From assembly GCA_016187405.1 (NCBI GenBank), contig JACPJS010000010.1, forward strand, positions 1 through 48,506: DNA of 48,506 nucleotides, written 5' to 3'. The notes below the pieces were generated by a model. It worked only from the letters and a program-made list of their open reading frames with translations, ran no database searches and had not been told where the DNA came from. Made by a program: the position numbers and the translations under genes. The stretch's first letter is position 1; each line of letters begins with the position of its first letter. The DNA comes from Candidatus Aenigmatarchaeota archaeon (GTDB lineage Archaea > Aenigmatarchaeota > Aenigmatarchaeia > CG10238-14 > SCSR01). Below, piece after piece: positions 4,376 through 48,342 of the stretch.

Positions 4376-4801
4376 TTAGATTGATTGTTGTGCTCTCATA
4401 ATACTTTCTAGAAATGCGATTTCAAAGTCCGATTGTTGTTGATAATCAGCTGTCCTTTGACGAACATGTGCTATTTCAGCTGTTATTTCAGCTTGTAAAT
4501 CATCCGGTTTAGATAAATTTCCTTTATAATAAAGTCTATATCCACGTGGTGTTCTTACTGGAACTTGATCCATAGATTGTGCAAGTTCTATAGCTCTTCT
4601 AGCATCTTCTTCAGTAGCTCCCTTTCCCAGTTCTCTATAATGTTCTTCATATTCTCGAGGTGAAACAACTACACCGTACGTACTGTAAGTTAAAGTTGTT
4701 GCAAAGTATCCTCTATAAATAAAACCCTGAGCTCGTCCTTCGCTATACAAAACTACGTCTCCTTCTTTTAATTCCTCTCTCTCCTGAATTTGTGAAACCA
4801 T
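4376..4801 (-). CDS. Hypothetical protein (Arg-rich ORFan class)
   Basis: 141-aa ORF with an ATG start and no motif I recognise. R:K is 13:4, Phe is 4/4 TTT and Gln is 10/12 CAA. A native-type A/T box lies 22 nt upstream. Confidence 0.6.
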   Translation of the reverse strand: MVSQIQEREELKEGDVVLYSEGRAQGFIYRGYFATTLTYSTYGVVVSPREYEEHYRELGKGATEEDARRAIELAQSMDQVPVRTPRGYRLYYKGNLSKPDDLQAEITAEIAHVRQRTADYQQQSDFEIAFLESIMRAQQSI

Positions 4802-4823
4802 ATTTAGAAGTTGAATGTTAACG

Positions 4824-4834
4824 ATTTAAGCTTT
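4824..4834 (-). promoter_or_regulatory. BRE/TATA-like box AAAGCTTAAAT, 22 nt upstream of ATG 4801
   Basis: The same 11-mer occurs 23 nt upstream of ORF 47998..48342. The spacing fits a leaderless archaeal transcript. Confidence 0.5.
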
Positions 4835-4864
4835 AACACAAAAGAATTGATCAGAAGGTTTAAT

Positions 4865-5581
4865 TTAATTAGCACAAACTTGCTGCGCGACTTCTAGCAC
4901 TCTTTGTTTGTAAAACGGTTTATCATGTTCGGCGCGTTCCGGTATGTATTTGACTGAGGTAACATCATTTGCTATTCTCTCTGCTTCTTTTGCTGGATTT
5001 TTGCATAAATCAGACGAATAAAGCGCAAAGGCTTCGATCCATGGATAGTAATCTTCGAGAATTTGACTGGCATCATTGCCAGAAGGTCTTTGCTCAGGTT
5101 TTCGATCTCTCTCGACTACATAGAAACCTTCAAATTTGTAGGTTACATAGTCGTCTGATGAGTATTCTGGAATAAAAATTCTCTGTCCATGATAACTAGA
5201 TGAGCGCCTTTCAAGTTCAGCACGTGTCAAGTCTGTTTGGCCATAAATGTGTATCATGTCTGGAGTTGTTCTTGATAAAACTCTGTTTAATTGTCGGTCG
5301 ATTCTTTTCATGTCAATTTGGAGTTGGTCGACTTTTCCTGACAAATCAGATTTGTCTTTCTGAAGAGCTACTTTCTCTGCATTCGATAAGGCTGCCTCTG
5401 TTCTTAGCGTATCTACTGTTGCAGAAAGTGCTTGATTTTCTCTCCTGAAATCGTTTGATGTACGTCTTGCCAAATCTGATTCATTATATGATGCGAGTGT
5501 AGAAACTGCAAGAACACTGGAAGCCACCAAAAGAAGCGGAGTTGTGTACCATCTGTAGAATCTTCTCAGCCTATTTATCAC
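4865..5581 (-). CDS. Hypothetical membrane-anchored coiled-coil protein (Arg-rich ORFan class)
   Basis: 238 aa with a GTG start 21 nt after the sodX-like stop. It has an N-terminal hydrophobic helix (TTPLLLVASSVLAVSTLA), a heptad-like region and a C-terminal domain with 2 Cys. R:K is 23:12. Confidence 0.55.
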   Translation of the reverse strand: MINRLRRFYRWYTTPLLLVASSVLAVSTLASYNESDLARRTSNDFRRENQALSATVDTLRTEAALSNAEKVALQKDKSDLSGKVDQLQIDMKRIDRQLNRVLSRTTPDMIHIYGQTDLTRAELERRSSSYHGQRIFIPEYSSDDYVTYKFEGFYVVERDRKPEQRPSGNDASQILEDYYPWIEAFALYSSDLCKNPAKEAERIANDVTSVKYIPERAEHDKPFYKQRVLEVAQQVCAN

Positions 5582-5602
5582 AATTTATTCTATGCATTTA
5601 AA

Positions 5603-5899
5603 TTATTTAACGTTGGGACGATCGCTTATTTTCAGAATAACTTTTCCAACTACTGAATTTTTGTTTATCGATTTTATTTTCTTGCTGAGAATGTTGTCGC
5701 CTTCAACAAAAATTTTATCGTAATATACTTTCGTAACGCGCTTCACCAAGAATTTATTGGAGTTTTTGAAAACGATCACATCGCCTTCATCAGGCATTTT
5801 AAGAACATACGCGAGCTTATTCACAAATACGTAATCTCCAGATTTCAGAAAAGGTTCCATACTTTTGTCTTCGATTCTGAAACGTGATACTGGAAGCAT
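5603..5899 (-). CDS. sodX: S26-family signal-peptidase-like protease, Ni-SOD maturation protease type
   Basis: 98 aa. DKSMEPFLKSGDYVFV carries the Ser nucleophile context, and GDVIVFK..LVKRV carries the Lys context. It lies in the same transcription direction as sodN, 222 nt downstream. Confidence 0.75.
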   Translation of the reverse strand: MLPVSRFRIEDKSMEPFLKSGDYVFVNKLAYVLKMPDEGDVIVFKNSNKFLVKRVTKVYYDKIFVEGDNILSKKIKSINKNSVVGKVILKISDRPNVK

Positions 5900-5901
5900 A
5901 A

Positions 5902-6120
5902 TTATTGAATTAATTCCAATTGTTTTATTCTAGGGATGTATCTTGCAGGAACGGACATTAAATAAACTTCGAGTCCTTCTATAATATCACGCTCGTAACG
6001 AACTGGGATACCATGTTGACCAATTGTTCTTTTCCATCTATCAAGTTCCTTATAATCTGCTGGTCTAATGGATACATTTGTCCAGTTTCTCTCGAATAAT
6101 TCTTGTAACCAAGGAAACAT
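5902..6120 (-). CDS. Hypothetical 72-aa protein between sodN and sodX
   Basis: ORF with 4-nt and 2-nt gaps to its neighbours. R:K is 8:3, Gln is 4/4 CAA and Leu is mostly TTA. No recognisable motif. Confidence 0.5.
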   Translation of the reverse strand: MFPWLQELFERNWTNVSIRPADYKELDRWKRTIGQHGIPVRYERDIIEGLEVYLMSVPARYIPRIKQLELIQ

Positions 6121-6124
6121 ATCA

Positions 6125-46404: not shown

Positions 46405-46571
46405 AAAATTAACTTATCGTAAAGAGTTAAATCTACATTTATCACAAAACGGACAACTTAACACCTCATATTGACCAGCCATATTAAACAATTATTATAT
46501 ACTATATTTTTATTCTTCCACTTCTTAGGCAAAGCCGCGATTTGGAGCCTTGTTGAACGGGATAGATATTT

Positions 46572-46925
46572 ATGGATAACAAATTAGATTCTCATATGGA
46601 CTTTGAAGAATACCAGAAGAAAACAAAAAAGACTGCAGTGTATCCGAACCAGGGAAATAATTTCGTTTATCCTACATTGGGGTTGACCGGTGAAAGCGGG
46701 GAAGTCGCAGATAAGATTAAAAAAGTGCTCCGTGATAAGAACGGTGTTGTTGATGAGAATACTAAACTTGAAATCGAAAAGGAACTGGGCGATGTGTTAT
46801 GGTATCTGAGCCAGATATCAACTGAACTCGGATTGTCATTGGATGAGATTGCACAGAAAAATATAATCAAATTGTTATCGAGATTGGAAAGAAACACTAT
46901 TCATGGCGACGGAGACAATAGATAG
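46572..46925 (+). CDS. MazG-like nucleotide pyrophosphohydrolase (small phage/YpjD-like type)
   Basis: Contains LGLTGESGEVADKIKK.....EKELGDVLWYLSQIS and a terminal GDGDNR. Codon choice is native. Confidence 0.85.
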   Translation: MDNKLDSHMDFEEYQKKTKKTAVYPNQGNNFVYPTLGLTGESGEVADKIKKVLRDKNGVVDENTKLEIEKELGDVLWYLSQISTELGLSLDEIAQKNIIKLLSRLERNTIHGDGDNR

Positions 46926-47032
46926 TGAAACAAGATTTTTACTGGCTAATGTAATAACCGAAAACCGCTTTATCGATGACGCAAGAAAAGTTTTCAAAAA
47001 GTCCCGCTATTTAGGCAATGCTCTAATTAACA

Positions 47033-47041
47033 GGCTTAAAT
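47033..47041 (+). promoter_or_regulatory. BRE/TATA-like box GGCTTAAAT, 23 nt upstream of ATG 47065
   Basis: It has the same spacing as the other boxes. The box lies inside a perfect 8-bp palindrome, AGGCTTAA-ATAA-TTAAGCCT (47032-47051). Confidence 0.45.
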
Positions 47042-47064
47042 AATTAAGCCTCTATTGAAAATAC

Positions 47065-47787
47065 ATGCCAAATCAAGTTAGTGATGCAGACATAATCTTT
47101 AATAGATTTTTTAAGAGTTATGATTCTTTTATACCTACAGCTGAAGATGTATTTCGCAATCCAAGACCTGTGCTTGAAGTAAGAGAATTGTACATACAAG
47201 ACATTCTTAGTAGAGATCCTCCTAGAATAGGAGATGGTTCAAGCGAGTTGAGACATTTTAGAACACTTAGACCAACTGCTAATCCAGATTTTGGTGCGTT
47301 ATTCGGAGAGAAAAGAGTGGTTTTAGCTGAATCGGAAAAATCTGGAATAAGAAATACAGCAACAAATCGGTTCATTGATGTAAGATTGCAGTTTGTCCTA
47401 GAATCTGTAGGAGAAGGTACTCCTCGTGTTGGATTTGGTTGGGATGAATTTGTATATGATGGCGATCATCGAACTCGAAGGCAATCACCATTGCCAACAA
47501 ATAGAGATATTTTCGAAAGAGGTTTGCCTCTTCAAGTAAAAAGAATTCGTTATAAAACAAATAGTGGGCATGGTGTTTACGGTGAAGACCTTACAGTAGC
47601 TCTTCTGCAACCTGATGGAAAATACGAAGTTGCGACACCCGTTAATAGAAAGATTTCTGAAATGGATGATTCAGCAATCGTTGTCAAATCCCCGCAAGGA
47701 ATAAGAGCTTGGGTTCCGCACTATGTTAATGTTAGTATAGGTTATGTGAAACCGTCAGATGTCACATTATATGTTCCAACTTCTTAA
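47065..47787 (+). CDS. Hypothetical protein (Arg-rich ORFan class)
   Basis: 240 aa with an ATG start and R:K of 23:9. Codon choice is mostly TTT/CAA. No recognisable motif. Confidence 0.55.
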   Translation: MPNQVSDADIIFNRFFKSYDSFIPTAEDVFRNPRPVLEVRELYIQDILSRDPPRIGDGSSELRHFRTLRPTANPDFGALFGEKRVVLAESEKSGIRNTATNRFIDVRLQFVLESVGEGTPRVGFGWDEFVYDGDHRTRRQSPLPTNRDIFERGLPLQVKRIRYKTNSGHGVYGEDLTVALLQPDGKYEVATPVNRKISEMDDSAIVVKSPQGIRAWVPHYVNVSIGYVKPSDVTLYVPTS

Positions 47788-47880
47788 GTTTACATACAAG
47801 TTTTACCAATCGATGATGCGATAGAATTCCAGAAAGAGGATTTGGATTTTGATAAACTTGGTTTAAAACGATATTTATAA

Positions 47881-47953
47881 TGGACTGAACGGGATTCGAA
47901 CCCGTGGCCTCATGCTTGCAAAGCACGCGATCTACCAACTGATCTATCAGCCC
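47881..47953 (-). tRNA. tRNA-Ala (anticodon UGC)
   Basis: The minus strand reads GGGCTGATAGATCAGTTGGTAGATCGCGTGCTTTGCAAGCATGAGGCCACGGGTTCGAATCCCGTTCAGTCCA. It has a G3:U70 pair, the loop TTTGCAA and discriminator A. Confidence 0.92.
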
Positions 47954-47997
47954 GAGATATATAGATTGTTCTAACTTGGATTTAAATTTATGAAAGA

Positions 47998-48342
47998 TTA
48001 TGGAGGCAGTTCTCTTAGAATATCGTAAAATATCTGAAGTAATGTACTTGATGATGGATCTGCGCGAGTAGGGCCATGATGATAATAATCACACATTGTG
48101 GTATCTATTAAGGTTCCTGGTGGACGGTCATGTAAATCGTAGCGAGTCCAGCATTTATGATAAGGTATACCTGTATCACCTTCCCAGTATAAGCTTCCTT
48201 CGTATCCAACGCCTACATGTGCACCAAAATTCTCTCTAGATACAGGACCTAATCTGGTTGTCAATTCTCTTTCAATTCTATCCTTAACAAACGAAGGTGA
48301 AACTGTGAGTGTAGACGATGTTATTCCGTATACTCCTGACAT
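47998..48342 (-). CDS. Hypothetical protein (Arg-rich ORFan class) inside the 16S-tRNA-Ala spacer
   Basis: 114-aa ORF with an ATG start and R:K of 8:2. Its own AAAGCTTAAAT box lies 23 nt upstream. No recognisable motif. Confidence 0.5.
   Translation of the reverse strand: MSGVYGITSSTLTVSPSFVKDRIERELTTRLGPVSRENFGAHVGVGYEGSLYWEGDTGIPYHKCWTRYDLHDRPPGTLIDTTMCDYYHHGPTRADPSSSTLLQIFYDILRELPP

Follow-up and report, generated by a model that had tools for sequence, protein, structure and literature searches.

The 48,506-nt stretch of DNA analyzed here (the window) is contig C16 (JACPJS010000010.1) of a 440-kb, 16-contig, 73%-complete assembly (GCA_016187405.1) of a Candidatus Aenigmatarchaeota archaeon, a member of the DPANN lineage. 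Dispersed along it are ten open reading frames (ORFs) that encode arginine-rich proteins in codons with AT-rich third positions and that lie at the boundaries between conserved genes. We consider it probable, if still some way from certain, that these ORFs are real accessory genes drawn from a fast-evolving, lineage-associated pool with AT-rich third codon positions, and that they were gained in a moron-like fashion, singly or in pairs, at the borders between genes. The ten are a local sample of a flexible gene class that extends over the whole genome.

A first-pass annotation had listed about ten arginine-rich ORFs with a shared, non-native codon choice, and each of the ten is present where it had been placed. 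Ranked against the 452 other ORFs of this genome that reach 100 aa, they have a low GC content at third codon positions (GC3 0.15-0.30, percentiles 0-25), a high GC content at first and second positions (GC1+2 0.41-0.51, percentiles 58-100, with nine of the ten at or above 85) and a high arginine share of arginine plus lysine (R/(R+K) 0.57-0.92, percentiles 87-100). The arginine-to-lysine ratios counted by hand in that annotation are exact for nine of the ORFs (13:4, 23:12, 8:3, 13:6, 12:9, 11:1, 19:13, 23:9 and 8:2), as they are for the Lrp-type regulator (9:20) and SodN (3:19); the ORF at 20379-20774 has 14:8 rather than the 13:6 first given. The codon preferences it described hold in the genome-wide class, relative to the core, for TTT (0.66 versus 0.39), TTA (0.31 versus 0.12) and CAA (0.78 versus 0.45) and fail for GGA (0.40 versus 0.42). 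The compositional separation from the conserved core that it proposed is borne out at four-fold degenerate sites, whose GC content is 0.188 in the ten candidates and 0.195 in the class as against 0.311 in conserved genes, with intergenic DNA at 0.33. Since these values fall below both core and intergenic DNA, the class is not simply at the neutral composition of the genome. All ten ORFs show a GC1>GC2>GC3 periodicity with G-rich first positions (chi-square p from 2e-2 for the 72-aa ORF to 4e-14), strongly so in nine, and they are genuine protein-coding genes. An origin as antisense or shadow ORFs was rejected, as their position-specific base composition (G1 0.27-0.38, A or T at position 3) matches no antisense frame of core genes.

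The supposition of a discrete, local set did not survive a genome-wide count. Using a simple longest-ORF procedure and a class defined by composition, namely a GC12-GC3 index of at least 0.15, 98 of 536 ORFs (~18%) carry the signature, scattered singly over all contigs as the tail of a broad continuum. The ten occupy the upper fifth of this broadly distributed index together with ~88 further ORFs on other contigs, some of them 300-470 aa long, and no paralogs of the ten were found within the genome. Class genes are dispersed without clustering (16 neighbouring pairs versus 16.7 +/- 3.3 in shuffles), and their proteins contain 6.65% arginine and 5.29% lysine, compared with 4.35% and 9.44% in conserved low-index genes. 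In the congener G003, a 791-kb contig taken whole and searched by tblastn, homologs were found for 22% of the class versus ~80% of the remaining ORFs. Where a class gene has a homolog in G003, the two are non-syntenic in 71% of cases, versus 11% for non-class genes (Fisher p=1e-9), and the median identity is 37% versus 64% for other genes. Outside the window the class comprises 87 proteins, and these gave matches to 37 Pfam families, each family in one or two proteins; the matched members are ordinary enzymes (HAD, SDR, GNAT, NUDIX, racemase, PIG-L and GGDEF), and these matches include no integrase or capsid family.

The positions of the ten ORFs were next contrasted with the corresponding sites in related genomes. 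Loci retrieved with the TFB protein belong to Candidatus Aenigmatarchaeota, for the most part from groundwater; one of them, L074, represents a closer species with a TFB 93% identical to the one here. The genomes of relatives measure 0.4-1.7 Mb, mostly below 1 Mb. Three congeners, G003, G007 and G005, served as the main synteny comparison with the genome under study (G000); they are distant from it (SecY 71-77% identical), the entire window is collinear with all three, and the candidates coincide exactly with the breaks in that collinearity. The uS5|sodX gap, 14-16 nt in G003, G007 and G005, measures 1229 nt here and holds orf141 (4376-4801, minus strand), the first of two ORFs in the slot, and the class-borderline orf238 (4865-5581, minus strand), 21 nt downstream of sodX. 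The sodN|sodX gap, 2-50 nt in all congeners examined, accommodates orf72 (5902-6120, minus strand) with 4 and 2 nt to spare and no promoter of its own. Around tfb, the gap to the PIN gene is 113-127 nt in G007 and G005 and the gap to the cobA-like gene is 100 nt in G007; here tfb is preceded by orf108 and followed, after 2 nt, by orf143 (35718-36149, minus strand) and by orf139 (35292-35711, minus strand), the last gene of the tfb transcription unit. A further class ORF of 100 aa, absent from the first list (34124-34429, plus strand; GC3 0.21, periodicity p=6e-6), fills a slot of 1-11 nt in congeners and has no match in G003, G007 or G005. Because the flanking genes lie 1-16 or ~100 nt apart in congeners, these ORFs are insertions. 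The earlier description of such sites as normally contiguous is accurate for sodN|sodX and the surroundings of tfb, whereas uS5 and uL30 are contiguous at the family level only, the whole genus having a sodN-sodX cassette between them.

At other sites the congeners are themselves occupied. The variable GatD|CTP-synthase slot, in which orf131 (20379-20774, plus strand) adjoins the Lrp gene, holds unrelated ORFs in G003 and G007. Unrelated occupants of such slots in G003 comprise a reverse transcriptase with its neighbours, a TerC-like protein, an SDR, a 2-hydroxyacid dehydrogenase, an M16 peptidase and a GT2 protein, and the slots of G007 and G005 contain other arginine-rich, low-GC3 ORFs. The presence of unrelated genes in the same slots of other species marks these slots as turnover hotspots. 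De novo birth from local non-coding DNA was rejected, given that empty sites of 1-16 nt hold no precursor DNA; the GC1+2 of 0.41-0.51 and the strong periodicity of the ORFs are, moreover, unlike intergenic DNA (0.33).

The clearest trace of an insertion lies at tfb, where orf108 (37136-37462, minus strand; 11 arginines, 1 lysine, GC3 0.15) sits exactly at the ancestral TFB start codon. Alignment to L076, L081 and L080 places an additional 333-bp segment precisely at the TFB ATG. A 20-nt direct repeat flanks orf108, identical at 19 of 20 positions and with a score attained in 0 of 300 shuffles. One copy (37123-37142, minus strand) is the present TFB leader and ATG and holds the orf108 stop codon; the other (37456-37475, minus strand) is the ancestral TFB leader and ATG, at which orf108 now begins. 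Upstream of orf108 lie the conserved promoter and leader of tfb. In relatives this leader continues directly into the TFB start codon; here the conserved promoter box GCTTAAAT (37511-37518, minus strand) lies 48 nt upstream of the orf108 ATG. As read from the sequence, orf108 would take the old promoter, leader and ATG, with its TGA inside the TFB-proximal leader copy, while TFB has its own leader copy and ATG after orf108. Within that copy, 6-7 nt ahead of the ATG, stands GTGAT, which is complementary to the end of 16S at the edge of the window (GGATCACCTCC); on these grounds the leader of TFB is probably of the Shine-Dalgarno type, in contrast to the leaderless class genes. A tandem duplication of the TFB 5' end was rejected as the source of orf108, since the two repeat copies agree at 95% and the body of the ORF bears no similarity to TFB. 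A weaker analogue exists at orf143, whose last codons resemble the tfb 3' end: a 19-nt imperfect direct repeat (15/19) relates the 3' ends of the two genes (shuffle p ~0.013). Flanking direct repeats are clear for orf108, weak for orf143 and absent for the other eight ORFs.

The earlier suggestion that several of the ORFs carry a native box-N23-ATG promoter architecture is upheld by four of them. A TATA-like box, GCTTAAAT, lies 22 nt before the ATG of orf141 (4824-4831, minus strand); GTTTAAAT-N23-ATG precedes orf258 (box 39138-39145, plus strand); and GCTTAAAT-N23-ATG precedes both orf240 (box 47034-47041, plus strand) and orf114 (box 48366-48373, minus strand). For the ORFs at 4865-5581 and 20379-20774 an own promoter is ambiguous, and those at 5902-6120, 35292-35711 and 35718-36149 lie inside operons, where the gaps are 2-6 nt, and have no promoter of their own. 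Genome-wide, a TATA-like heptamer occurs 20-26 nt before the start of 48% of class heads, 21% of conserved heads and 0.9% of random positions, and the exact octamer GCTTAAAT occurs at that distance in six class heads and zero core heads, a contrast that may stem in part from less accurate start calls in the core. Upstream of the 98 class and 304 conserved genes examined, GCTTAAAT was found in 10 and 2 cases, respectively, and TTAAATCT in 11 and 4. An extended consensus, GCTTAAAT(C/A)NTT(A/T)A, is also apparent upstream of class genes.

We then asked how the composition of the class compares with that of its relatives. Over three species, core GC3 ranges from 0.27 to 0.52, and that of their arginine-rich unconserved ORFs only from 0.23 to 0.33. 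In codon usage the class lies at a distance of 0.31 from the G003 core, 0.40 and 0.58 from the arginine-rich unconserved ORFs of G003 and G007, respectively, and 0.91 from its own core. In G007, with a core GC3 of 0.52, the arginine-rich unconserved ORFs have a GC3 of 0.33, an intermediate value that may reflect partial amelioration, and one slot ORF (149045-150226) has a GC3 of 0.23 with 24 arginines and 7 lysines. The pairing of a GC-type protein with AT-type codons, initially judged odd, is common to accessory ORFs in at least three congeners. At 64 TFB loci across the phylum, where relatives are not independent samples, the GC3 of unique ORFs falls below that of conserved neighbours in 47 (median difference -0.089) and R/(R+K) exceeds that of neighbours in 42; this phylum-wide signature is weaker, with GC3 down and R/(R+K) up but GC1+2 not higher. 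Within conserved genes, GC1+2 and GC3 are negatively correlated in G000 (rho -0.25) and G003 (rho -0.33), so that gene-level total GC varies less than its two parts predict; the correlation is absent in G007 and G005.

Homology searches returned little for the ten ORFs. Nine of them are unmatched in ten congeners, in keeping with their initial designation as ORFans, and none of the ten has a match in 80 TFB-centred loci across the phylum or a hit above cut-off in Pfam, PHROGs or PADLOC. The search for a viral, plasmid or defence origin likewise gave no match for any of the ten, the IMG/VR scan yielding no relatives for the three candidates it covered. For orf141 (GC1/2/3 0.56/0.39/0.15, periodicity p=5e-12, 13 arginines, 4 lysines) no match was found in 69 family genomes, IMG/VR, Pfam, PHROGs or PADLOC. 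The product of orf238 (23 arginines, 12 lysines, GC3 0.30) has a hydrophobic segment at its N-terminus as well as a region that resembles a coiled coil; it drew only weak coiled-coil matches below the Pfam cut-off and none in 10 congeners. Ten congeners likewise lack a match to orf131 (14 arginines, 8 lysines, GC3 0.22, p=4e-7), orf139 (13 arginines, 6 lysines, GC3 0.17), orf108 and orf114 (47998-48342, minus strand, in the 16S-tRNA-Ala spacer; 8 arginines, 2 lysines, GC3 0.23). The short orf72, whose periodicity is weaker (p=0.02), has no match in L001-L012 or five more congeners, and orf143 has none in 69 family genomes.

Two ORFs have homologs, and conserved blocks are present in both families. 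The sole candidate with a congener homolog is orf258 (39169-39945, plus strand), which adjoins the 23S 3' end and is also found, identical in sequence, on Logan contigs of other runs; aquifer metagenomes of the SRR121134xx series carry such identical contigs. Its homolog in G005 (C4 2289-2999, minus strand; 20 arginines, 10 lysines, GC3 0.29) occupies the same slot in the same orientation and is 32% identical (E=6e-23), as compared with 72% for the neighbouring aIF5A. Since this ortholog retains the signature, low GC3 and high arginine are not by themselves proof of recent arrival. A full HMMER search of 1.84 billion representatives found four remote, unannotated homologs of orf240 (47065-47787, plus strand, in the split rRNA operon, with a MazG-like gene on one side and tRNA-Ala on the other); the best (E=5e-18) has 19 arginines and 7 lysines among lysine-rich neighbours, on a contig of 2.9 kb whose ORFs are small, unannotated and co-directional. 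A match of orf240 to an FG-GAP/PAAR protein is probably spurious. When orf258, orf238 and orf108 were compared with 5.8 billion proteins by a word index, each retrieved the query itself alone; since the G005 homolog, at 32% identity, escaped this index as well, it is insensitive at such distances. ESM Atlas gave no more than sub-threshold leads for orf141 and orf139, and an exact-sequence look-up of TFB found nothing. AlphaFold2 models were of low confidence by the predicted local distance difference test (pLDDT 58 for orf240 from a four-sequence alignment, 47 for orf258 from two sequences) and had no match in Foldseek against the Protein Data Bank (PDB) or in an Atlas shape search, and none of these searches pointed to a function.

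Taken as gains from an accessory pool, the ORFs would have been added singly or in pairs at boundaries that are tight in relatives. The pool, whose sources could be other strains or as yet unsampled mobile elements, would have AT-rich synonymous sites like those of low-GC congeners and would encode proteins without the strong lysine enrichment of the core proteome. Some of the genes would be expressed from their own leaderless promoters (a TATA-like box, 22-23 nt, ATG); others would ride resident operons, namely orf72 and perhaps orf238 in sodN-sodX, and orf108, orf143 and orf139 around tfb. Composition, distribution, empty sites and one insertion scar are direct observations, from which the source pool, the expression and any function are inferred. 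Atypical composition is said, in the amelioration framework of Lawrence and Ochman, to mark recently acquired genes. The class does differ in synonymous usage (GC3, four-fold-site GC and the distance of 0.91 from its own core), and absence in relatives goes together with empty orthologous sites; an identifiable donor, however, did not emerge from matches that consisted of the queries themselves and four remote orf240 homologs, with none in IMG/VR.

Several further observations weigh against a gain from such a pool. No donor was found; the ten have no IMG/VR, PHROGs, PADLOC or Pfam match, and neither an integrase, a reverse transcriptase nor TnpB was detected in an assembly that is 73% complete. 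The GC12-GC3 index varies continuously, and the negative correlation between GC12 and GC3 remains inside the conserved core (rho -0.25); as the class is defined by composition, part of its similarity across genomes follows from the definition. Both orf258 and its syntenic G005 ortholog have low GC3, which is unexpected if low GC3 marks only recent arrival. At occupied slots, the distance of the congeners makes gain indistinguishable from divergence beyond recognition. Finally, junction repeats are rare genome-wide and not significantly enriched in the class, so that the scar at tfb proves one insertion and not a general mechanism.

The main rival, an unlikely but by no means negligible one, is that the ORFs are native, old, fast-evolving and weakly expressed genes whose low GC3 and arginine richness are a stable property of the class and whose homologs have diverged beyond detection. 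Absent codon selection, a lack of GC-biased gene conversion on non-recombining accessory genes and gene-level GC compensation are possible causes. The continuum of the index, the negative correlation among conserved genes of G000 and G003 and the equality of total class GC (~0.38) with the genome mean all favor it, as does an ortholog of orf258 that is 32% identical and shares the signature beside neighbours at ~72%; a survey of orphan genes found that most match genome composition and argued for native origin (PMC11293555). In contrast to the pattern of that survey, four-fold-site GC here lies under both core and intergenic DNA (PMC11293555). Moreover, a diverged ortholog could not fit into the empty sites of three congeners, which measure 1-16 nt, the scar at orf108 records a discrete insertion, 71% of detectable homologs are non-syntenic, and drift under AT pressure is expected to raise lysine, not arginine.

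That each ORFan is instead the remnant of an integrated virus or plasmid strikes us as rather improbable. Synonymous sites that are AT-richer than those of the host are typical of viruses and plasmids, and lower GC was seen just in virus-like orphans (PMC11293555). ORFans have been ascribed to integrative elements, the source proposed for most of those in archaea (Cortez et al. 2009, PMC2718499), the 20-nt repeat around orf108 is att-like, and the best orf240 homolog resides on the contig of 2.9 kb with its small, unannotated ORFs in a common direction. These arguments are countered by the lack of clustering (16 versus 16.7 +/- 3.3 adjacent pairs), by a class with no integrase, capsid or other hallmark, by the negative PHROGs result and the negative IMG/VR result for three candidates, by an insert of 333 bp, far below the size of an element, and by annotated class members that are ordinary enzymes (HAD, SDR, GNAT, NUDIX and racemase).

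Equally speculative, in our estimation, is an unrecognised, integrase-independent route in Aenigmatarchaeota for the precise insertion of single ORFs at resident start or stop codons with duplication of ~20 bp of target, the AT3-rich, arginine-rich dialect and the GCTTAAAT-N22/23-ATG promoter then marking a dedicated cassette pool in a DPANN lineage. An inserted ORF would borrow the promoter, leader, start or stop of the host gene, and the host gene would retain a copy. This mechanism draws on orf108, which sits at the TFB ATG, on orf72 within sodN-sodX and possibly on orf143 at the stop of TFB. A search of the assembled 73% of the genome matched neither a tyrosine recombinase (PF00589) nor a reverse transcriptase (PF00078), and TnpB (PF07282) gave a single sub-cut-off match, on the TFB zinc ribbon.

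Spurious spacer ORFs or a chimeric assembly or binning can be set aside as essentially excluded: in spite of a short orf72 with a periodicity of only p=0.02 and a metagenome-assembled genome that is 73% complete, nine of the ten ORFs are strongly periodic, they leave little free space in their slots and share the strand of the operon, canonical promoters stand at a fixed distance from many of them, conserved motifs recur in the homologs of two, synteny with three congeners is unbroken across the window, and independent Logan contigs from other sequencing runs, identical at 100% over 36770-40315, show that the arrangement is no assembly chimera.

A gain of accessory genes one or two at a time can be set beside several known systems. 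Phage morons, attributed to Juhala and Hendrix (2000), are reportedly extra genes accreted between conserved genes of lambdoid phages. The ORFs described here resemble them as single genes between neighbours that are adjacent in relatives, with a composition unlike those neighbours, in many cases with their own promoter, and with a function that is unknown or accessory. They differ in their setting, a cellular archaeal chromosome including its ribosomal-protein, rRNA and tfb units, and in that several ride host operons without a promoter of their own. Integron cassettes share with orf108 a promoter-less single ORF behind a resident promoter, here that of tfb, and a short flanking direct repeat; here, however, there is no integron integrase, attC-like common cassette-end element or cassette array, no k-mer is shared downstream of class genes, and no tyrosine recombinase occurs in the assembly.

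Cortez, Forterre and Gribaldo (2009) described clusters of atypical genes and ORFans derived from integrative elements (PMC2718499). The present genes are likewise archaeal ORFans of atypical composition and patchy distribution but are unclustered, and no integrase or element hallmark was found with them (PMC2718499). Archaeal 'dark matter islands' consist of narrowly spread, fast-evolving, uncharacterised genes and make up to ~20% of a genome (Makarova et al. 2014, PMC4158269); the share found here, ~18% of ORFs, is similar, whereas our genes are dispersed singletons and the ten showed no signature of mobile elements, defence or secretion. The GC and GC3s of species-specific orphans in gut prokaryotes follow the genome almost one to one, with a GC-poorer, virus-like minority (PMC11293555). 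Like those orphans, the genes here are short, rarely conserved and low in the codons favoured by conserved genes; unlike them, they have a four-fold-site GC of 0.19 versus 0.31 in the core and 0.33 in intergenic DNA, and the class resembles the virus-like minority in composition, not in homology (PMC11293555).

The remainder of the window is occupied by conserved genes: part of a ribosomal-protein/secY operon; the sodN-sodX pair; GatD, CTP synthase and the Lrp-type regulator; tfb, the PIN protein, a histone and aIF5A; 23S rRNA (40034-43190, minus strand); tRNA-Ala; and the 3' end of 16S rRNA at the window edge. The rRNA operon is interrupted by protein genes (43190-48506), in the order 16S, orf114, tRNA-Ala, six genes and 23S. 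The six are orf240, two MazG-like genes, an NERD/PD-(D/E)XK-like ORF, a Schlafen-type helicase and a PD-(D/E)XK nuclease. In G007 (C1 170733-173131) the 16S-tRNA-Ala spacer is ~1.6 kb and contains an unrelated 258-aa low-GC3 ORF, and only ~720 nt separate tRNA-Ala from 23S.

Two other slot ORFs, at 6660-7007 (plus strand) and 38776-39087 (minus strand), have no homologs in G003, G007 or G005 and lack the arginine-rich signature. The former (115 aa) has 1 arginine, 9 lysines and a GC3 of 0.16; the latter (103 aa) has 0 arginines, 5 lysines and no periodicity (p=0.74) and may be non-coding. Inverted repeats around the inserts at 4376-5581 and 34124-34429 were dismissed as being at chance level in AT-rich DNA. 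The sodN|uL30 slot of G003 (L049 18800-19822, minus strand; L050 210-941, minus strand) contains a reverse transcriptase (RVT_1, E=2e-20), a 52-aa ORF and a 243-aa protein with a weak, sub-threshold FGE-sulfatase-like match, a layout that recalls a diversity-generating retroelement. G000 (C15 23322-24095) encodes a homolog of the 243-aa protein at 48% identity, in an assembly where no reverse transcriptase was found.

Repeats at gene junctions were also seen outside the class. The conserved EMC3/DUF106-like membrane protein gene that follows secY (9448-9939) has a 30-nt imperfect direct repeat (24/30) on both sides (~9421-9450 and ~9913-9942), which takes in the final codons and the stop of both genes together with the start that follows, and could be an old insertion scar or a common translational-coupling signal. 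The top junction repeats belong to tandem paralogs (G000 C4 7413-7835 and C5 21780-22649) with near-identical 5' ends and an MKGISP...-type N-terminus that, judged by its residues, looks like an archaeal type IV pilin signal.

The atypical composition of patchy genes and ORFans is long established, and what is described here is a familiar kind of genome flexibility; the most interesting particulars are an arginine-rich, AT3-rich dialect common to congeners and an unusually clean scar at the TFB start codon. Tiny DPANN genomes are usually described in terms of loss. In this one, approximately one fifth of the ORFs form a dispersed, compositionally distinct, fast-turnover layer that reaches the most conserved units, namely the ribosomal-protein operon, the rRNA operon and tfb. 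The recurrence of a similar dialect among congeners with core GC3 values between 0.27 and 0.52 offers a handle on the origins of ORFans in episymbiotic archaea, and the scar at TFB provides a testable example of an essential gene that gained an upstream cistron without inactivation. If expressed, these genes would be candidates for strain-specific functions in host interaction or conflict.

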